DNA from: Acutalibacteraceae bacterium
GTDB taxonomy: Bacteria; Bacillota; Clostridia; Oscillospirales; Acutalibacteraceae
Direction of reading: 5' to 3'
NCBI GenBank assembly: GCA_036308615.1
Contig: JAXJVI010000099.1
Location: forward strand, 1 to 39,748
DNA: 39,748 bases
Part shown: positions 13,360-37,803 of the stretch, piece after piece
Layout: the number at the start of each line of letters is the position of its first letter
How positions within the stretch are numbered: position 1 is the first letter of the stretch
Translations under genes and position numbers: made by a program
The notes under the pieces: generated by a model
Database searches by the model: none
The model's input: only the letters and a program-made list of their open reading frames with translations
Told to the model about the DNA's origin: nothing

Positions 13360-13537
13360 AGACCCAATCTGTAGTATTAACTAACCCGCCGTGACCTGCG
13401 TCAATAATTATTGTCTGCCGTTCGGTTACCGTACCGCCGACTGTGATATATTCATATCCCTTTGCTACCGCGGTGCTGAGTATTGCGAGGCACAAAACAA
13501 CCGCTAAAATCACCGCAATTTTTCTTTTTAAAATCAC
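13360..13537 (-). pseudogene. Displaced 5' fragment of a cwlD-like gene (59 codons)
   Basis: Reverse translation from GTG comp(13535-13537), with the same GGAG RBS as cwlD, gives MILKRKIAVILAVVLCLAILSTAVAKGYEYITVGGTVTERQTIIIDAGHGG-LVNTTDWV*. The amidase body is missing. Confidence 0.85.
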
Positions 13538-13597
13538 ATTATCACTCCAGTCGCTTCTGTTTTAAAAATATGATTTTTGAAGGACGGATAGAACATA
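13381..13597. repeat. Right copy of the 217-bp direct repeat
   Basis: See the left copy at 1641-1857. Confidence 0.95.
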
Positions 13598-30154: not shown

Positions 30155-30158
30155 AACA

Positions 30159-30202
30159 GAGGACGGTCTGTGTCTTAAGAGAGAGGACAGAGAGCCGTCC
30201 TC
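30159..30202. repeat. Long imperfect hairpin with GAGGACGG / CCGTCCTC base (degenerate member of the GGGACGG repeat family)
   Basis: GAGGACGGTCTGTGTC (30159-30174) pairs with GACAGAGAGCCGTCCTC (30186-30202). No T-run follows. Confidence 0.75.
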
Positions 30203-30263
30203 GTTCATCTATTAGATGAAATATTCAATGGAATAATAATTTTTTATGTTTAAGGAGATTGTT

Positions 30264-31166
30264 ATGAAAAAGATCTTGGTTTTAGGCGGCACAACCTTTG
30301 TTAGCAAATATGTGGCGGATTATTTTGTTAATCGTGAATATGAAGTTTATGTACTTAACAGGAATACAAAACCGCAGGTTAAAGGTGTAAAACTAATCAC
30401 GGGAGATAGACATAACTTAGGTGATATATTAAAGGGTATACATTTTGATATTGTGGCAGATATAACAGCTTATGATGCACAGGACATTATTGACTTATAT
30501 AATGCAATTGATTCCTTTGAGCAGTATATTATGATAAGTTCAAGTGCAGTGTACCCGGAGTACGGTGTACAACCGTTTCTTGAAGAGTCTGAGAAAAATA
30601 TAAACAAATTTTGGGGTAGCTATGGAACCAATAAGCTTTATGCGGAAAATGCTTTATTGGAGAGAGTTCCCGATGCATATATTTTGAGACCGCCGTATTT
30701 ATACGGACCTATGAATAATGTTTATAGAGAGGCATTTGTGTTTGATTGCGCTAAGGCGGACAGAAAATTTTATTTGCCGAAAGACGGAGCAATGAAAATA
30801 CAACTATTTCATGTCAGGGACTTATGTAAGTTGATGGAAGTGATTATTGTTGATAAACCGTCTGAGCATATTCTGAATGTGGGAAATTCCGAAGCAATAT
30901 CTATAAAAGATTGGGTTATAAAGTGTTATGCTTGTTTTGATAAAGTTCCGGCGTTTGTGAATGTTTATGGTGATATAGAGCAGAGAAATTATTTCAGTTT
31001 TTATAACTATGAATACTATTTAGATGTACAGCGTCAACATAAAATATATTCAGATACAATTTCTTTAGAAGAAGGGCTAAAAGAATCGGCAGAGTGGTAT
31101 CTTGCAAATGAAACAGAAGTAAATAAGAAACCGTATTTTGATTATATTGATACGAATTTGGTTTAA
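30264..31166 (+). CDS. NAD-dependent epimerase/dehydratase family protein
   Basis: Start at MKKILVLGGTTFVSKYV with an AAGGAG RBS. The Rossmann fold has a Gly-rich loop, and YGTNKLYAE fits the YxxxK catalytic motif. A hand count of one 60-nt line gives about 28% G+C. Confidence 0.8.
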   Translation: MKKILVLGGTTFVSKYVADYFVNREYEVYVLNRNTKPQVKGVKLITGDRHNLGDILKGIHFDIVADITAYDAQDIIDLYNAIDSFEQYIMISSSAVYPEYGVQPFLEESEKNINKFWGSYGTNKLYAENALLERVPDAYILRPPYLYGPMNNVYREAFVFDCAKADRKFYLPKDGAMKIQLFHVRDLCKLMEVIIVDKPSEHILNVGNSEAISIKDWVIKCYACFDKVPAFVNVYGDIEQRNYFSFYNYEYYLDVQRQHKIYSDTISLEEGLKESAEWYLANETEVNKKPYFDYIDTNLV

Positions 31167-31168
31167 GT

Positions 31169-31194
31169 TGGGACAGGTAACCGTCCACTTTTTA
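31169..31194 (+). terminator. Terminator-like hairpin (GGACAGG-TAA-CCGTCC) plus T-run
   Basis: TGGGACAGGTAACCGTCCA followed by CTTTTTA. The stem has two bulges. Confidence 0.5.
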
Positions 31195-31215
31195 TGTCAA
31201 ATTGCATAAACCAAA

Positions 31216-31393
31216 GGCCCCCAAGCCTCACGGGGGCTGTCGCGGCAATGCGCCCCTTGCCTAAAGGGGAGAGGGCCAACCGGTCAGGTTGGCGAGGGGA
31301 TTCCCGTGACTGGAGGATACTTAAGGTGCAGAGAGCCTAATATATCCCTCCACCGCCGTTCGGCGGTCCCCCTCCCTTTAGGCAAGGGAGGCT
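31216..31393. repeat. GC-rich multi-hairpin intergenic element (MITE/REP-like)
   Basis: A chain of short GC hairpins: GCCCCC..GGGGGC, CCCCTT-GCCTA-AAGGGG, CCAACC-GGTCA-GGTTGG, CCGCCG-TT-CGGCGG, CTCCCTT-TAGGC-AAGGGAG. The arms 31252-31275 and 31368-31392 are inverted copies of each other. Confidence 0.7.
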
Positions 31394-31486
31394 CTTATTT
31401 AAAATGTATTTAATGCAGGACAGGGTTGCTTCAGTTCTCTCTGCCTGCTCTTAGGCAAAAAAGGAACGAAAAAAATTATTTTTATA

Positions 31487-32345: not shown

Positions 32346-32373
32346 TTGACAAACAGAAATAATGTGTTACAAT
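32346..32373 (+). promoter_or_regulatory. Promoter of the S-box leader
   Basis: TTGACA (32346-32351), 16-nt spacer, extended -10 TGTTACAAT (32365-32373). Confidence 0.6.
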
Positions 32374-32396
32374 AGTAACCGTAAAATTAAATATGT

Positions 32397-32533
32397 CCTT
32401 ATCAAGAGCGGCGGAGGGAATCGGCCCTGTGATGCCCGGCAACCTGATGGTTTTATCAAGGTGCTAATTCCGACGGATTATCCGAAAGATGAGGTTTTGT
32501 GCCGCTTGCCTTTCGGTGAGCGGCATTTGTTTT
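32397..32533 (+). promoter_or_regulatory. SAM-I riboswitch (S-box) with intrinsic terminator
   Basis: CCTTATCAAGAGCGGCGGAGGGAATCGGCCCTGTGATGCCCGGCAACC...GGTGCTAATTCCGAC...AGATGAGG matches the S-box consensus. The terminator is TGCCGCT..AGCGGCA plus TTTGTTTT (32500-32533). Confidence 0.92.
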
Positions 32534-32575
32534 CATCAGTATATGTATATAGGACAAATAGGTTCTATTCCTAAT

Positions 32576-32833
32576 GTTGGGGTTTCAACAGTTCTCGCCT
32601 CCCTCTGACGAGGGAGGTGCCGAGGGACGAGGCGGAGGGAGAGAAAAAAGGGACAAAAGCATTAATAAAGCCTTTTTTGACTACCCTCAGTCGCCTATGA
32701 CCCTTAAAAAGTCTCTCCCTCAGTCTGCGATGCAGACAGCCGCTGACGGCGGCGGTCCCCTCTGTCACTTCGTGCCATCTCCCCACACTGTGGGGAGTCA
32801 CCCTCGTCAGAGGGAGCCAAATGAGACCCCAAC
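32576..32833. mobile_element. 258-bp GC-rich MITE-like element with terminal inverted repeats, inside the metK leader
   Basis: Left end: GTTGGGGT...CTCCCTCTGACGAGGG. Right end: CCCTCGTCAGAGGGAG...ACCCCAAC. Internal hairpins include GTCTGC-GATG-CAGAC and TCCCCA-CACTG-TGGGGA. No coding potential beyond a start-less read-through frame. Confidence 0.75.
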
Positions 32834-32876
32834 TTTTGCAAAAGAACCGACAAATAAAAACGGAGGAAAAATAAAA

Positions 32877-34064
32877 ATGTCAAAAATGTTATTTACATCT
32901 GAATCGGTCACCGAGGGTCATCCCGACAAGGTCTGCGACCGTGTTTCGGATGCTGTGTTAGATGCGATACTTGAAAGAGACCCCAATGCCCGTGTTGCCT
33001 GTGAGACCTTCTGCACCACAGGCAGTATCACGGTTATGGGCGAAATTAGCACAAGCTGTCAGGTTGATATTCCGCAGATTGCGCGGGATGTGGTCTGCGA
33101 GATAGGCTATAACAGCCCCGAGGCGGGCTTCGACGGCAACACCTGCGCGGTTATGACGGCTATTGATAAGCAGTCCCCCGATATTGCTATGGGGGTTGAC
33201 AATTCCCTTGAATTTAAGGACGGTCAAGAGGATAGGTACAATCTTAACGGCGCGGGGGATCAGGGTATGATGTTTGGTTACGCCTGTGACGAAACGCCGG
33301 AGCTTATGCCTTTGCCGATTTCCCTTGCGCATAAAATGGCAAAGCGCTTGACCGAGGTCAGAAAAAGCGGGGAGATCGGTTACTTAAGACCCGACGGCAA
33401 AACTCAGGTTACCGTGGAATATGAGGACGGAAAGCCCCAAAGAATAGACGCGGTTGTTGTGTCTTCACAGCACAGCGCCGCGGTTGATTTAGGAACACTT
33501 CGCGCCGATATTTTGGAAAAGGTGATCAAGCCTACAGTTCCCGAAGAGCTGTTTGATGAAAACACAAAGGTTTACATAAACCCGACAGGACGGTTTGTTG
33601 TCGGCGGCCCCGCGGGAGATACGGGACTTACGGGGCGCAAAATAATAGTCGATACCTACGGCGGCTTTGCCCGCCACGGCGGCGGAGCCTTTTCGGGCAA
33701 GGATCCCACAAAGGTTGACCGCAGTGCCGCCTACGCCGCGCGTTATATAGCAAAGAATATCGTAGCGGCGAAAATAGCCTCAAAATGCGAAGTGCAGTTG
33801 GCATACGCGATAGGCGTAGCCCGACCTGTTTCGGTTATGGTAGATACCTTTGGCACGGGTAAATACGATGACGAAAAAATCGCCGAGGCGGTAAAGAAGG
33901 TCTTCGATCTGCGCCCGTCCGCTATTATCGATACCTTAGAGCTTAGGAAACCGATTTACAAACAGCTCTCTGCTTACGGTCATATGGGCAGAACCGACCT
34001 TGATATTCCGTGGGAAAGAACCGACTGCATAGACGAGCTTATTAAGGAATTGAACGAAGGGTAA
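32877..34064 (+). CDS. metK: S-adenosylmethionine synthetase
   Basis: Start at [21 protein letters not shown] after a [36 protein letters not shown]. 395 aa. The ORF-track start at 32574 is a read-through of the MITE. Confidence 0.97.
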
Positions 34065-34133
34065 AGCTTTTAGGTATATGGGTAACAGCACAGAGAACCG
34101 TTGCCCGATTTCCCCATATTAGGAGTTTTTCAA

Positions 34134-35192
34134 ATGAATATTATACACAAAGAGGTAGGCTTTATTGCCGCAGAAAACGGTGTTTCCCGCGCGGGTGAGG
34201 GCGCCTTTGTCCGCTTAAAAGACGGCAGAATAATGCTTGCGTATACAGAATATTATACCGCTAATACCGGTGATGACGCTCCTGCAAATATTGCCGCAGT
34301 ATATTCACGAGATAACGGCGAAAGCTGGGGAAAGCATCGCATACTTCTGGAAAAGGGTGCAGACGATTGCAATATTATGTCAGTAAGCTTTTTGACAGAA
34401 GGCGAAGAATTAATTATTTTTTATTTGAAAAAGTATGTGGTGAACGGTAAAGTGGTTTGTATACCGTTTCTTCGCCGCTCCGGTGACGACGGCGAAAGCT
34501 GGAGCGAAGAACAGCGTATAGGCAAAAGAGACTTGTATTATGTAGTGAACAATGACCGCGTTATAAGGCTGAAAAGTGGAAGAATAATCGTTCCCGCCGC
34601 AATAGTTGACCCATTTACGGGCAGACCGAAAAACGGAGCCGCATTATGTTTTATTACTTCTGATGACAACGGCTATACCTGGACGGAGCAAAAACAGGAG
34701 TTATCGCTCCTGTTTGATAACCGAATGGGGTTAGAAGAGCCGGGACTGTACGAGCATAATGACGGCAGCATATGGTGTTATATACGCACTCATTTAGGCT
34801 GTCAGTATAGCTCGGTTTCTTATGACGGGGGAGAATCCTGGTCGGCGCCTGAACCTATGCCCTTTTTTAGCTCGCCTGCCTCGCCTATGCTTGTGAAAAA
34901 AGTCTGCAACGCAACGGTTGCAATATTTAATCCCATTCCCGGTTACACCTCAAGACCGGGGGAATTATGGGGCAGAACGCCTTACCTTTTGGTAATAAGT
35001 AAAACAGACGCGTATCCGCACAACGGTGAAGGATTTACTGTTAGTTATATGCTTGAAAATGATCGCAGTAACAATTATTGCTACCCTGCCATACTTGATA
35101 ACGGCACAGACTTTCTCATTGCGTATTATCATTCCAACGGAACGGGCTATCCGCTCAACAGTCTGAAAATAGTAAAAGTATACATAAGGTAA
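34134..35192 (+). CDS. BNR/Asp-box repeat protein, sialidase-like beta-propeller, no signal peptide
   Basis: Start at MNIIHKEVGF after an AGGAG RBS. Four Asp-boxes: SRDNGESW, SGDDGESW, SDDNGYTW, SYDGGESW. Confidence 0.8.
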   Translation: MNIIHKEVGFIAAENGVSRAGEGAFVRLKDGRIMLAYTEYYTANTGDDAPANIAAVYSRDNGESWGKHRILLEKGADDCNIMSVSFLTEGEELIIFYLKKYVVNGKVVCIPFLRRSGDDGESWSEEQRIGKRDLYYVVNNDRVIRLKSGRIIVPAAIVDPFTGRPKNGAALCFITSDDNGYTWTEQKQELSLLFDNRMGLEEPGLYEHNDGSIWCYIRTHLGCQYSSVSYDGGESWSAPEPMPFFSSPASPMLVKKVCNATVAIFNPIPGYTSRPGELWGRTPYLLVISKTDAYPHNGEGFTVSYMLENDRSNNYCYPAILDNGTDFLIAYYHSNGTGYPLNSLKIVKVYIR

Positions 35193-35259
35193 TCAAGGGG
35201 ACGGTGTGAAACCACTGAAAAAAGGGCACTGAAAAAGTCAAGGCTTTCGGCGTTGTTTG

Positions 35260-35284
35260 AAGACAGGGGACGGTTCTCTGTCCT
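35260..35284 (+). repeat. Hairpin repeat, type 1 (AAGACAGGGGACGGTTCTCTGTCCT)
   Basis: This 25-mer is identical to 37003-37027 and 37054-37078. It abuts the duplicated metK core exactly. Confidence 0.9.
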
Positions 35285-35373
35285 ACGGTCATATGGGCAG
35301 AACCGACCTTGATATTCCGTGGGAAAGAACCGACTGCATAGATTTGCTTTCTAAAGAATTGACCGACAGGTAA
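35284..35373 (+). pseudogene. Displaced metK 3' end (last 29 codons + stop)
   Basis: 35284-35342 is identical to 33975-34033 (59 bp). The tail encodes ...[12 protein letters not shown], versus ...[12 protein letters not shown] in the intact gene (22 of 31 nt identical). Confidence 0.92.
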
Positions 35374-35402
35374 GCATTTTAAGCCGTCGGGTCATAACAC
35401 AG

Positions 35403-35468
35403 GGGACGGTTAGAAATCGCTGAAATCTCCTTTTTTTCAGTGGCTTCTAACCGTTCCTTATTTTTTTA
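35403..35468 (+). terminator. Long-stem rho-independent terminator (presumed original metK terminator)
   Basis: GGGACGGTTAGAAATCGCTGAAA pairs with TTTCAGTGGCTTCTAACCGTTCC, followed by TTATTTTTTTTAAT. Confidence 0.8.
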
Positions 35469-35477
35469 ATTTTAGTA

Positions 35478-35514
35478 TTGACATTTATTATTAATTGATA
35501 TATAATATCATTAA
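35478..35514 (+). promoter_or_regulatory. Consensus sigma-A promoter overlapped by an AT-rich imperfect palindrome (candidate Fur-family operator)
   Basis: TTGACA (35478-35483), 17-nt spacer, TATAAT (35501-35506). The palindrome is TTAAT(T)GATAT-ATA-ATATCATTAA at 35491-35514. Confidence 0.65.
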
Positions 35515-35540
35515 GACAGGATTGCAGGGATTGAATATAT

Positions 35541-35969
35541 ATGATGAAACGGAAGACAATTCAGCGTTCTTTGGTATTGGACGCTGTGAACAAATTACAT
35601 AATCACGCAACGGCGGACGAGATATACGATGCCGTTATCATTGAACACCCTAATATCAGTAAGGCGACTGTATATAGAAACTTAAATGCTTTATCGGAAA
35701 TGGGAGAAATACGCAAATTGGAAATCCCGGGCGGAGCCGACCGATATGACCACTGTACCCATAATCACTGTCATATAAAATGTGACAAATGCGGCCGCCT
35801 TTTCGATGTGGATATGGATTATATCTCGGGCCTCGAAAATAACATAAGGGACACCCGCGGATTTGATTTTAGAGGCTATGATATTATTTTTCGCGGAACT
35901 TGCCCTGATTGCAAAAAGCATTCGTCATCTCAAAAAGAGAAAGATGTATCACAGAAAAACCGCGACTGA
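35541..35969 (+). CDS. Fur-family metalloregulator (Zur/PerR-like)
   Basis: 142 aa: winged helix ATVYRNLNALSEMGEI, HCTHNHCH, CDKCG...CPDCKK structural Zn site. Confidence 0.85.
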   Translation: MMKRKTIQRSLVLDAVNKLHNHATADEIYDAVIIEHPNISKATVYRNLNALSEMGEIRKLEIPGGADRYDHCTHNHCHIKCDKCGRLFDVDMDYISGLENNIRDTRGFDFRGYDIIFRGTCPDCKKHSSSQKEKDVSQKNRD

Positions 35970-36005
35970 GCGTTTTTCATATAATAAATATTTAGGAGGA
36001 TTGTT

Positions 36006-36572
36006 ATGAGAAGCATTACCAAATTAGATTTGCAGTACGCGCATCGATTTTACGGATTTAAGGGAGAAGCACAATATTTGCATGGACATACCGGTGTTCT
36101 TACCATAGAAGTTGAGGATACCGTCGAGCCGGGCGTAAATATGGTTTTTCCTTGTAATGAAATTCAGAAGACAGCTTGGGAGGTTCTCAAGAACTTTGAC
36201 CATGCATTGATTTTGAGAGAGGACGATCCTCTCCTGCCTGCTATCCTTGATGTTTATGAAAAGCAGGGAATCAAAGCCGGCGCGCCTACCAACAAGATGA
36301 AGGGTCCCGCGTTTAAGACAGAGCTTGCAACGGCTTATCCCGATTGCCGTTTGGTAGTGACCAAGGAAACTATGACGGTTGAAGGTATGATTAAAATCGT
36401 GTACGACCTTCTTAAGGATAAGCTGAATATTGCCAAGCTTACCTTTATAAGCGGCGTAAATGCGGCATCCGAGGAGTTTGAGACAAGAAAAGAAATTGAC
36501 CGCTGTCCTTTGTGCGGCATAGCGCTTAATGAAAAAGGCGTTTGCCCCAAGTGCGGATACAAAAAGAATTAA
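36006..36572 (+). CDS. 6-pyruvoyl-tetrahydropterin synthase/QueD-like protein with C-terminal zinc ribbon
   Basis: YAHRFYGFKGEAQYLHGHTGVLTIEV (His triad pattern H...HGH), NFDHALIL, C-terminal CPLCGIALNEKGVCPKCG. Confidence 0.7.
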   Translation: MRSITKLDLQYAHRFYGFKGEAQYLHGHTGVLTIEVEDTVEPGVNMVFPCNEIQKTAWEVLKNFDHALILREDDPLLPAILDVYEKQGIKAGAPTNKMKGPAFKTELATAYPDCRLVVTKETMTVEGMIKIVYDLLKDKLNIAKLTFISGVNAASEEFETRKEIDRCPLCGIALNEKGVCPKCGYKKN

Positions 36573-36588
36573 ACATTTCCTAATCGTG

Positions 36589-36626
36589 GAGCCAAGAGAA
36601 CCGTCCCCTTGGCTCTTAAAATTTTT
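36589..36626 (+). terminator. Hairpin repeat, type 2, serving as terminator of the QueD-like gene
   Basis: GAGCCAAG-AGAACCGTCCC-CTTGGCTC followed by TTAAAATTTTT. It has the same 11-nt loop (reverse orientation) as the type 1 repeats. Confidence 0.75.
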
Positions 36627-36989: not shown

Positions 36990-37197
36990 TAAGACAGGGA
37001 ATAAGACAGGGGACGGTTCTCTGTCCTGATTTGAGGGTAAGACAGGGGACGGTAAGACAGGGGACGGTTCTCTGTCCTGATTTGCGGATAGCGAAGATTA
37101 CGAAAAATTTTTAGAAATATTGAAGAGCCAAGAGAACCGTCCCCTTGTCTCCCTAAGAAATATTGAAGAGCCAAGAGAACCGTCCCCTTGTCTCCCC
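36990..37197. repeat. Composite array of the hairpin repeat: 2 full + 2 partial forward units and 2 reverse 43-bp tandem units
   Basis: Forward units: 36991-37000 (partial), 37003-37033, 37039-37053 (partial), 37054-37085. Reverse tandem 43-mers: 37111-37153 and 37154-37196 (TAAGAAATATTGAAGAGCCAAGAGAACCGTCCCCTTGTCTCCC). Confidence 0.92.
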
Positions 37198-37803
37198 AAC
37201 TGTTTTATGCTTACCGCCCGGAATGTCATAGCGGATTGTTTCCTTAAAGTTCGGAACAAAATCCACAAATATGCCGATTTCTTCTTTAATTTCCCGTTTG
37301 GCGGTCTGTTCCTCGGTTTCAAAGGCTTCCATATGTCCTTTAGGAACGCTGTAGGTTTGCGACCTCCGCTGAAAAAGACATAGAATTTTTATTCCGCCGT
37401 TTTCTCTTTTGAAAACGACTGCACCGCAGGATTTTTGATAAATCGCCTCTATCTCTGTTTTATAATATTGCTCCTGAAAATGCACCTGCTCGGCGATTTC
37501 GTTCTGCGTGAAATTCATGCCCTCCGGAGCCATAACCAGCTTGTCCTCAACATCATTTTCACGGTGAACAATTCCAATGATTTCACCTGTGTATTCAGTC
37601 ACTGGCTTATCCACACCCAGCAAATAAACATCAAGTTCCTCGCCGTCACCACCCAAAATACCCGGAATATATCCGTAGTTAATTTGATAATTTAAGCTAT
37701 AATTTTCTTTCTTATGTACATAACCTATCGGACGATCAATTTCTATCCGCACAGTTTTGCCGAGATAGGATTTTACAAGCGCTTTTCTTTCTTCAAATGT
37801 CAT
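37153..37803 (-). CDS. Inorganic-pyrophosphatase-like domain fused to an Ap4A-hydrolase-like Nudix domain; 3' end replaced by repeat sequence
   Basis: The N-half NYGYIPGILGGDGEELDVYLLG...IIGIVHRENDVEDKLVMAP matches the family I PPase pattern NYGFIP..DGDP.DV. The C-half carries the Nudix box KGHMEAFETEEQTAKREIKEEIG. Homology ends at ...GGKHKTV, and the last 14 codons (GETRGRFSWLFNIS) are encoded by the repeat array. Confidence 0.7.
   Translation of the reverse strand: MTFEERKALVKSYLGKTVRIEIDRPIGYVHKKENYSLNYQINYGYIPGILGGDGEELDVYLLGVDKPVTEYTGEIIGIVHRENDVEDKLVMAPEGMNFTQNEIAEQVHFQEQYYKTEIEAIYQKSCGAVVFKRENGGIKILCLFQRRSQTYSVPKGHMEAFETEEQTAKREIKEEIGIFVDFVPNFKETIRYDIPGGKHKTVGETRGRFSWLFNIS

Follow-up and report, generated by a model that had tools for sequence, protein, structure and literature searches.

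Organization of the metK region

The region considered here lies in a 39,748-nt stretch from an Acutalibacteraceae bacterium (assembly GCA_036308615.1, contig JAXJVI010000099.1, positions 1-39,748), which as a whole is called the window in the following. Within it, the last 29 codons of metK are present twice and flank a single gene encoding a BNR/sialidase-like protein. A repeat finder returned a direct repeat of 128 nt (33975-34102 and 35284-35411, 81% identical, with starts 1309 nt apart) whose first 59 nt, referred to as the core, match exactly (33975-34033 and 35284-35342). Behind the core come tails of 31 nt each, in which 9 positions differ by our count on the window sequence: tail A, of the ELIKELNEG type, closes the intact metK and tail B closes the displaced fragment. 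A preliminary description of this DNA, made from the sequence alone, had reported the doubled 29 codons with an identical 59-bp core, the diverged tails (22 of 31 nt identical), a strong terminator behind the displaced copy only, a single cargo gene with four Asp-boxes and no signal peptide, and a hairpin repeat at the right junction with a degenerate inverted copy at the left one. All these observations were reproduced. The same holds for the lack of a recombinase, since a Pfam search detected no such domain in the inserted cassette, in an island at cwlD described below, or in the ORFs scanned in the window. The features of the region are the following, REP standing for repetitive extragenic palindrome and SAM for S-adenosylmethionine.

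32346-32373, + strand: near-consensus promoter ahead of the SAM riboswitch (promoter scan)
32396-32495, + strand: SAM (S-box) riboswitch aptamer (Rfam RF00162, 83 bits)
32499-32526, + strand: terminator-like hairpin of the SAM riboswitch (terminator scan)
32877-34064, + strand: metK, 395 aa (TIGR01034, 591 bits), with a body of the species' own type
From between 33933 and 33974 to the stop of metK: A-type tract (informative-site scan)
33975-34102, + strand: left repeat copy, with core (33975-34033), A-type tail (34034-34064) and post-stop A region
34087-34112, - strand: degenerate inverted REP copy (motif at 34092-34105 with 2 mismatches; 77% complementary to 35259-35284)
34121-35222: roaming BNR DNA unit, from the ribosome-binding site to about 30 nt beyond the stop
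34134-35192, + strand: BNR cargo gene, 352 aa (BNR_2, PF13088, E = 5.6e-25)
35196-35226, + strand: left-arm-only copy of a terminator-type hairpin (84% identical to 35401-35425, 83% complementary to 35429-35457)
35259-35284, + strand: REP copy forming the illegitimate right junction (...GGTTCTCTGTCC/TACGG, the slash marking the join)
35284-35411, + strand: right repeat copy, a displaced promoterless metK 3' fragment of 29 codons with B-type tail, stop at 35371-35373 and post-stop B region
35403-35468, + strand: intrinsic terminator of the B-type metK end (-15.3 kcal/mol, z = -5.25), adjoining the second repeat copy only
35478-36612, + strand: fur/perR-PTPS (QueD-like) module, with promoter (35478-35506), fur-family gene (35541-35969), PTPS gene (36006-36572) and bounding REP (36588-36612)

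The promoter scan placed consensus promoters at 32346-32373 and 35478-35506 and none in the interval that separates metK from the BNR gene. For this reason, the BNR gene is probably a promoterless passenger that would be read through from the S-box-controlled metK promoter and would end at the old metK terminator, a hairpin that carries a REP-like motif (GGGACGGTT) at the base of its stem. The segment 32396-32526, together with its promoter, would form the control region of metK and, through this read-through, probably also that of the downstream gene. The insertion has thus probably put a sialidase-family gene under S-box (SAM) control.

The four Asp-boxes of the BNR protein read SRDNGESW, SGDDGESW, SDDNGYTW and SYDGGESW, and its translation has no hydrophobic or signal-like N-terminus. 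Its relatives of solved structure in the PDB are NanC, anhydrosialidase and IT-sialidase, with weak E-values (1e-9 to 1e-7). It is therefore predicted to be a cytoplasmic protein of the BNR_2/GH33-like sialidase family. A homologue with 58% identity is encoded in a cluster with a NanA-like lyase, a GlcNAc 2-epimerase-like protein and a GDSL esterase, which suggests sialic-acid-related metabolism.

Copies of the BNR gene with 84-90% nucleotide identity were found in three further settings. In contigs L020-L022 the gene follows a SIS gene of a sugar operon, in L018 and L019 it stands between a hypothetical and a pectate-lyase-like gene together with a SIS-gene stub, and in L110 it comes after a tRNA gene. 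Homology with these loci is confined to 34120/34130-35181/35222 of the window and does not include the metK ends. The left-arm-only hairpin copy (35196-35226) lies inside the homology with L018 and moves with the gene, and the REP motif is missing from all these other loci. The BNR gene thus appears to be a frequent passenger, and the metK-derived flanks appear to be specific to the locus studied here. Searches of plasmid, phage and viral-contig collections gave no match for the cassette. In L018, which comes from another organism, the SIS-gene stub upstream of BNR corresponds to the gene that precedes BNR in L020 (L018 5738-5828 and 7080-7104; L020 3300-3400). The BNR gene of L018 is flanked by 25-nt direct repeats (CCAAACCGCTGAAAAAGTCGAGCAA) that are 84% identical and 1276 nt apart, and the same motif is also present 3' of the BNR gene in the window (35210-35245).

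With its single ORF that lacks a promoter, the hairpin behind it and its occurrence in several contexts, the unit resembles an integron cassette. This candidate was rejected: there is no attC-like site of the R''/L''...L'/R' type (no GTTRRRY/RYYYAAC pair in the sequence as read), no intI and no array, the only hairpin is the weak REP of 21-26 nt, and the insertion lies in the end of a coding gene with a long duplication.

Empty and filled alleles and the two types of metK end

Contigs of the same species were fetched by exact-protein look-ups. Five of them (L001, L002, L005, L007 and L009) carry the empty site, metK with tail B followed by the terminator and fur, that the preliminary description had expected in relatives. 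Metagenomes with the filled allele include SRR24599646, ERZ27298610 and ERZ28595205. Filled sites with at least 99% identity to the window are present in L011-L015, and a second filled lineage (L113-L115) is about 97% identical to it over 32849-36596, with identical junctions and without two other insertions present in the window. Since the metK bodies of the empty contigs differ by 3.0-4.4% from that of the window and by 2.4-4.4% among themselves, the empty strains and the window belong to one species, and the BNR insertion is a true presence/absence polymorphism. That the empty sites arose from the filled allele by homologous deletion is unlikely, because all of them have C at position 33974 where the left copy of the filled allele has T.

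The window is a metagenome-type contig, and repeats of 59 nt can mislead assemblers, so that an assembly duplication or chimera was considered; the preliminary description had named an assembly duplication as a possible refutation. However, the metK-BNR-fragment structure is present in at least 10 independent metagenome contigs (L011-L017 and L113-L115), with the same order and junctions in independent samples and assemblers, and the lineage that is 3% diverged has variants of its own in both copies. The likelihood of an artefact is accordingly negligible. Two of these contigs, L016 (1310 nt) and L017 (1309 nt), cover exactly 34004-35313, the unique part extended on either side by 30 nt of the repeat. 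Their interpretation as a circle was rejected because they are the expected unitigs of k = 31 bounded by the repeat. Of the two outcomes that the preliminary description had proposed to look for, the cassette in other contexts or as a circle, the BNR gene was found in three other contexts and no circle was seen.

The organism belongs to an uncultured, Acutalibacteraceae-like species complex of gut Clostridia, one member of its MetK cluster being named Acutalibacteraceae. Among GTDB species representatives, a set that does not contain the window's species and in which the closest MetK is only 75% identical, none of 80 loci had a duplicated metK end. The A-type tail pattern had no match in the JGI metagenomes and the core pattern was found there in two contigs (L108 and L109). 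A protein search with the MetK C-terminus returned short fragments only. Contigs L106 and L107 were set aside as irrelevant, their genes being frameshifted in error-prone assemblies.

The ELIKELNEG end had been taken as the mark of a foreign donor. This was not confirmed. The MetK cluster holds full-length natural proteins that end in ...DELIKELN(K), besides hybrid tails, and A-type ends occur on full-length MetK such as P0164, P0171, P0173, P0180 and others. In L111 (8% diverged from the window) and in L116 (from a lineage diverged by 13%), an A-type metK heads the arrangement mscL-ECF-metK-gltB-gltD, and neither locus has fur, PTPS, BNR or REPs. Because A-type metK genes head these plain loci of sister lineages, the A-type end appears to be the ancestral-type metK end of the species complex and not a foreign sequence. 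The earlier idea of a gene end supplied by the element was correct in that the attached end differs in type from the displaced one; an origin specific to an element is contradicted by its being a natural allele.

Tail B has another distribution. Together with the terminator, fur and PTPS, it is 97.9-100% identical across the lineages that carry it, also where metK differs by 13.6%, and L104 and L109 share this module although their metK and flanks are 9-14% diverged. Over 35385-36612, the fur/perR-PTPS module differs by 0-1.5% while metK differs by up to 13.8% (L001-L009, L104, L109 and L113). The module is missing from L108, in which metK is followed by a metN-like gene, from L111 and from L116, and secondarily from the filled strain L012. 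Since it is near-identical across diverged lineages and absent from plain loci, tail B seems to belong to a recently spread fur-PTPS module, which in some lineages also includes a gene for a REP-associated tyrosine transposase (RAYT). These values fit a recent sweep of two genes across lineages. The homology of the module stops at a REP (36596-36617) that is found in either orientation among strains. Comparison of the fur-PTPS-RAYT module with plasmid, phage and viral collections gave nothing but distant PTPS genes.

Two rearrangements were observed on this side of metK. In L012 (3400-3460), fur, PTPS and a 114-aa zinc-ribbon ORF are missing, and the metK terminator with the -35 box of the fur promoter is fused directly to a REP copy (window position 35485 joined to 37053). 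In addition, the species of the window (L001, L113) has gltB-gltD downstream of PTPS and inverted, on the minus strand, and these genes lie forward, right after metK, in L104, L111 and L116, a difference that implies an inversion with one end at the metK hotspot.

REP sequences and the recurrence of metK duplications

The REP motif (GGGGACGGTTCTCT) has 8 matches in the window, against 0.14 expected by chance, and all of them are located within 30.1-37.2 kb. These REPs consist of a short covarying stem and a conserved loop of 11-14 nt, their hairpins are flanked by ...CTGTGTTA or ...CTCTGTCC, and the consensus continues with ...TCTCTGTCCTGATTTG or ...TCTCTGTCCTGATT. The copy at the right junction (35259-35284) has a perfect motif and a weak hairpin (-4.5 kcal/mol, z = -0.9). 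At the point of the join, the REP copies at 37002 and 37053 read GACAGGGGACGGTTCTCTGTCCTGATTTG, metK reads CAGCTCTCTGCCTACGGTCAT (...CTCTCTGCCTACGG) and the junction reads GGACGGTTCTCTGTCCTACGGTCAT. Agreement of the junction with the REP consensus therefore reaches as far as TCTCTGTCCT, and its agreement with metK begins at (C)CTACGG. The overlap between both is CCT when it is exact and TCTCTG(T)CCT, with 9 of 10 positions, when one indel is allowed.

The junction copy also forms a direct REP(+) pair with 37002-37027 (24 of 26 nt identical, 1743 nt apart). This pair brackets the metK fragment, the terminator, fur, PTPS, a REP(-) and the 114-aa ORF, and the bracketed segment could be a REP-to-REP recombination unit. 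Further downstream, the 3' end of a 216-aa pyrophosphatase/NUDIX-like ORF (37153-37803, minus strand) enters tandem REP copies at 37131-37187, so that about its last 15 codons (37153-37200) are REP-encoded. This ORF may be a further gene truncated at a REP.

Duplicated metK ends were found in two other settings. In L104 and L105, of the lineage diverged by 13%, metK with a B end is followed by the terminator, fur, PTPS, two REP(+) copies, the gene of a 250-aa Y1 protein and a REP(-), and then by a 9-nt tandem filler and a 111-codon metK fragment ending in ...RINELIKELTGR before its stop. The fragment with its A'-type post-stop region is 84.7% identical to window 33739-34114 and starts at the equivalent of 33741, so that the homology of the window's left repeat copy to this displaced A'-type sequence extends to 34114. 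The first 190 nt or so of the repeat of about 335 nt are identical in both copies of L104 and contain variants of the L104 lineage. The second setting, in L003 and L004, has the order fur-PTPS-metallophosphatase-REP(+)-Y1 gene-REP(-)-metK fragment, the contig ending there. In L003 this fragment begins at a site corresponding to window 33190, with 28 of 30 nt matching, and shuffled sequences gave no match by chance. The Y1 gene and its REPs are 99.8% identical between both (L003 2538-3379; L104 7120-8000), the gene itself lying at 7221-7973 of L104.

The 250-aa Y1 protein is a RAYT (NCBIfam NF047646, 83.2 bits with a cutoff of 80), its gene is flanked by REP(+) and REP(-) in L003 and in L104, and the repeat family thus qualifies as a REP-RAYT system (PMC2817692, PMC3116915). 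No RAYT is encoded in the window. A REP adjoins every one of the metK fragments, which begin at distances of 88, 335 and about 880 nt upstream of the stop. The L003 and L104 junctions have a common REP-side end (...CCCCTGTGTTA) and different metK-side breakpoints. The distance from join to hairpin is 1-14 nt, with filler, and the duplications comprise 59-128 nt, 335 nt and more. There were at least two independent duplication events and probably three; the lower value allows for a possible origin of the L104 junction from an L003-like one through a secondary deletion. The locus is hence a case of recurrent, REP-associated and integrase-free stacking of modules behind an essential gene, a real phenomenon and more than an ordinary one.

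These data raise the question of whether the transposase itself captures genes. It would make ends at REP hairpins and join them to single-stranded DNA in paired metK, and REP-bounded modules (BNR, fur-PTPS, the RAYT gene itself and perhaps the other 1.3-kb single-gene inserts of the window) would spread in this way without an integrase, leaving gene-end duplications as footprints. In favor of this proposal, all three metK-fragment junctions adjoin a REP, and the REP-side end common to L003 and L104, with its different metK-side breakpoints, points in the same direction. It also agrees with the fact that the 250-aa protein passes the RAYT model and lies between inverted REPs in both lineages, with the 99.8% identity of this segment, with the absence of REPs from plain loci, and with the presence of REPs at the edges of most structural variants (36596-36617, the L012 join at 37053, and the pair 35259/37002). 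However, the window encodes no RAYT, REPs gather in intergenic DNA regardless, the REP at the junction forms a weak hairpin, and the L104 junction could stem from an L003-like one by secondary deletion. Orientation and spacing vary as well, REP(+) at 1-3 nt in the window and REP(-) at 4-14 nt, with filler or the 9-nt tandem duplication, in L003 and L104. Such variable orientation, spacing and filler look more like sloppy end-joining than like precise HUH chemistry. A unit mobilized by a Y1 enzyme would have fixed distances and no long duplications, since Y1 transposition does not produce them. The unit found here has a perfect REP motif at its right end and a degenerate inverted copy at its left end, with the RAYT in sister strains only, and both its duplications and its distances depart from that pattern. 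Taken together, gene capture by the RAYT is distinctly unlikely, and a narrower role of the enzyme in making the REP-side end is possible, as the recurrence of REPs and the shared L003/L104 end suggest.

REP and REPIN-RAYT systems have been characterized elsewhere (PMC2817692, PMC3116915, PMC3337134), and REPs are also among the known join-points of rearrangements, as in the REP-mediated formation of F'128, a case that PMC1428787 cites. The sequences described here share with these systems the over-represented short hairpin repeats, a lone RAYT gene between inverted REPs and the presence of REPs at rearrangement junctions. They differ from them in that the REPs bound kilobase-sized gene modules and adjoin gene fragments. 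What RAYTs do is a long-standing question, to which the repeated coincidence of illegitimate joins with RAYT-associated REPs is relevant. To our knowledge, RAYTs have not been shown to move genes, so that a capture of the kind outlined above would, if true, be the first evidence of a RAYT/REP system moving genes and not only REPINs.

Recombination at the metK end

The position at which metK changes its type was located with a scan of 68 informative sites that distinguish the A-type genes found in nature, in L111 and L112, from those of the five empties. The window metK is of its own species' type at the sites from 32933 to 33933 and of A-type from 33974. In L113 the switch to A-type lies between 33909 and 33932, and A-type GACGCC is present at 33932/33933. 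Both switches are upstream of the duplicated segment, whose left edge is at 33973-33975. All six strains of the species with tail B have C at position 33974, and every A-tail copy has T there. In the right copy, the first unambiguous B-type site is 34030.

The core itself has a later origin than the insertion. In L113 the identity of the two copies is limited to about 54 nt, beginning with TACGG and closing with GACCGCA, after which the left one reads CATAGAC (A-type) and the right one CACAGAT (B-type). Moreover, the L113 copies read GACATT...GACCGCAT/CAGA where both window copies read GATATT...GACTGCATAGA. Both window copies also have a change from CGC to TGC (Arg to Cys; 34020-34022 and 35329-35331) that is unique to the window's strain group, and the right copy carries in addition an A-type T. 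Since derived changes are shared by both window copies, gene conversion took place after the event, and the 59-nt core is conserved coding sequence homogenized by this process and not an att-like crossover site. The CGC to TGC change, common to the functional metK end and the displaced fragment, is an instance of concerted evolution over a 59-nt repeat. A tandem duplication followed by divergence was also considered and rejected, because the 9 differences in 31 positions of the tails stand beside 59 nt of identity and both tails are separate natural alleles.

Elements that target the 3' ends of genes are well known, such as ICESt1/3 and cis-mobilizable elements (CIMEs) at fda, the staphylococcal cassette chromosome (SCC) elements SCCmec and pseudo-SCC at rlmH/orfX, and SGI1 at trmE, and integrase-less derivatives of them exist. 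The structure in the window resembles these elements in that direct repeats flank the insert and the end of the target gene stays intact, though altered. A CIME-like or pseudo-SCC-like cassette would be a 1309-bp element with a 59-bp att core, moved by a recombinase encoded elsewhere, and the identical core, the gene end that restores the target ORF and the single-gene cargo known from other contexts agree with it. Against this, neither the cassette nor the two islands of the window encode a recombinase, the core has about 54 nt in L113 and owes its 59 nt in the window to gene conversion, and tail A, which serves as the surrogate end, is an allele native to the species complex. The A-type variants outside the repeats disfavor a 1309-bp unit recombining at the core. 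The crossover is not fixed either, for other metK duplications start elsewhere (33741 and 33190) and repeat lengths vary. Furthermore, the other BNR contexts share 34121-35222 only and not the supposed att/metK ends, and neither the cassette nor a larger element with the core-tail A sequence had a match in the plasmid, phage, viral and JGI collections. The att-like repeats are thus present without an integrase in the cassette or the scanned ORFs of the window and without the fixed crossover, the resemblance to CIMEs and pseudo-SCC is superficial, and a site-specific element is very improbable.

We consider it reasonably likely that the structure is instead the insertion-duplication scar of an integrase-free event akin to homology-facilitated illegitimate recombination (HFIR), and not a self-integrating element. 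As far as its treatment of HFIR goes, PMC3240628 describes the process in naturally transformable Acinetobacter, S. pneumoniae and P. stutzeri as the combination of one homologous anchor and a join at 3-10 bp of microhomology. Both components are recognizable here: the switch from own type to A-type inside metK indicates homologous exchange on one side, and the junction on the other side falls within the range of microhomology given there (PMC3240628). The locus also shares with HFIR the lack of recombinase and att site and the size of the insert, around 1 kb. It differs in the position of the join, within the anchor or at its edge, which leads to the duplication of a gene end, and in that the illegitimate partner is repeatedly a REP hairpin.

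In this reading, homology runs out at the 3' end of the conserved, essential metK, a variable region follows, and strains swap alternative haplotypes downstream of the gene. As to the order of events and the enzymology of the join, we infer the following. Haplotype A would consist of metK with its A-type end, the post-stop A region, the BNR gene and a REP, and haplotype B would begin 88 nt before the stop of metK(B) and continue with the terminator, fur and PTPS. With the BNR haplotype as incoming DNA, a RecA-type homologous exchange would have taken place within metK, shortly before position 33974; with the fur module as incoming DNA, the exchange would lie downstream. A microhomology-mediated illegitimate join would have connected the 3' flank of the REP hairpin to the interior of metK (TCTCTG(T)CCT/ACGG), possibly by ligation of the donor end to a displaced resident strand cut within the D-loop. 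With the join inside the anchor, the gene end would be duplicated instead of deleted, and only products with an intact metK would survive. Later, gene conversion between the repeat copies in the window's lineage produced the identical core. An incoming fur module is favored by its recent spread and by the ancestral A-type ends, and an incoming BNR haplotype by the diversity of the sampled empties.

Several points weigh against an HFIR-like event. Classical HFIR, in the cases that PMC3240628 deals with, usually yields an insertion with a deletion and no duplication (PMC3240628). Here nothing is missing with respect to the empties and 59-128 nt are duplicated instead. A precursor in which metK(A)-BNR-REP is followed by non-B DNA was not found among the contigs, and either haplotype may have been the resident or the incoming one. 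At the junction, the C of CCTAC in the right copy may come from the REP or from B-type metK, which leaves one informative site ambiguous; this C had been considered as proof of B-type origin from the first base, an argument that was dropped because the REP consensus (..GTCCT..) could supply it. Finally, the illegitimate joins fall repeatedly at REPs, two of them with the same REP-side nucleotide (...CCCCTGTGTTA), a coincidence that random breakage does not obviously predict and that may point to an enzyme-made end.

The main rival to an HFIR-like event is a Campbell-type integration. A fragment with the metK A-end, BNR and the REP would have been circularized by the join of REP to metK and inserted into a B-type chromosome by a RecA-dependent single crossover in its 54-59-nt core. 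Insertion-duplication gives exactly the topology observed, in which the homologous segment is directly repeated, with a spacing of 1309 nt, on both sides of foreign DNA. In E. coli experiments with a lacZ end, single-arm DNA was partially degraded, recircularized and integrated by a single crossover, without a site-specific enzyme and mostly with gene-end duplications of 109-950 bp (PMC3240628). The directly repeated gene-end segment (about 100-950 bp in E. coli) is the feature in common with the present case, and the identity of the first 190 nt or so of the L104 copies, with L104-lineage variants, would fit a circle that crossed over with a chromosome of its own lineage. However, this route needs pure recipient DNA left of the repeat, and both filled lineages have T at 33974, with L113 having also GACGCC at 33932/33933. 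These donor-type variants outside the duplicated segment, which call for extra assumptions, and the identity of only 54-59 nt, a poor substrate for RecA, separate the locus from the E. coli constructs, as does its being a natural population polymorphism and not a laboratory construct. The A-type variants just left of the left copy may instead reflect an unsampled recipient or a later exchange. No circle was seen, L016 and L017 being unitigs. Such a crossover is conceivable but unlikely. Since either HFIR or the single crossover of recircularized DNA suffices (PMC3240628), no new integration process is needed, and the locus is probably a variant of known recombination processes. The preliminary description had proposed a recurrent and possibly undescribed integration route; recurrence is borne out by the metK duplications of L104 and L003, and novelty is not.

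The locus records, nucleotide by nucleotide and in natural gut populations, the integrase-free addition of genes beside an essential gene whose own 3' end serves as anchor and remains intact through its duplication. We know of few natural examples of homology-plus-illegitimate events resolved so closely, laboratory studies being plentiful. For annotators, it follows that direct repeats and a restored gene end are no proof of a site-specific element, as an identical core can arise later by gene conversion.

Other structures were observed in the window as well. The duplication of the cwlD 5' end, also reported in the preliminary description, was confirmed as a repeat of 213 nt with 89% identity (1643-1855 and 13383-13595). 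It surrounds an 11.7-kb island with a GH109 glycosidase, an APH-type kinase, nagA/nagB-like fragments, AraC and XRE regulators, GNATs and Fic, and the window motif scan found no REP motif near the edges of this island. A second 1.3-kb single-gene insertion (30155-31470) contains an NAD-dependent epimerase gene (30246-31166) of low G+C content (31-37%) and begins right after the mscL stop and the REP-like terminator hairpin of mscL. L104, L111 and L113 lack it. Behind it lie G+C-rich repeats, which L108 has as well. Lastly, a 288-bp insertion (32561-32848) between the S-box terminator and the metK start codon is missing from all empties, L113 and L104. It has a perfect 16-nt inverted repeat (32599-32614 and 32801-32816) and G+C-rich repeats of the CCCTCAGTC type, and looks like a miniature inverted-repeat transposable element within the riboswitch-controlled leader. 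It fuses an upstream ORF to metK, so that gene callers give a MetK of 496 aa.

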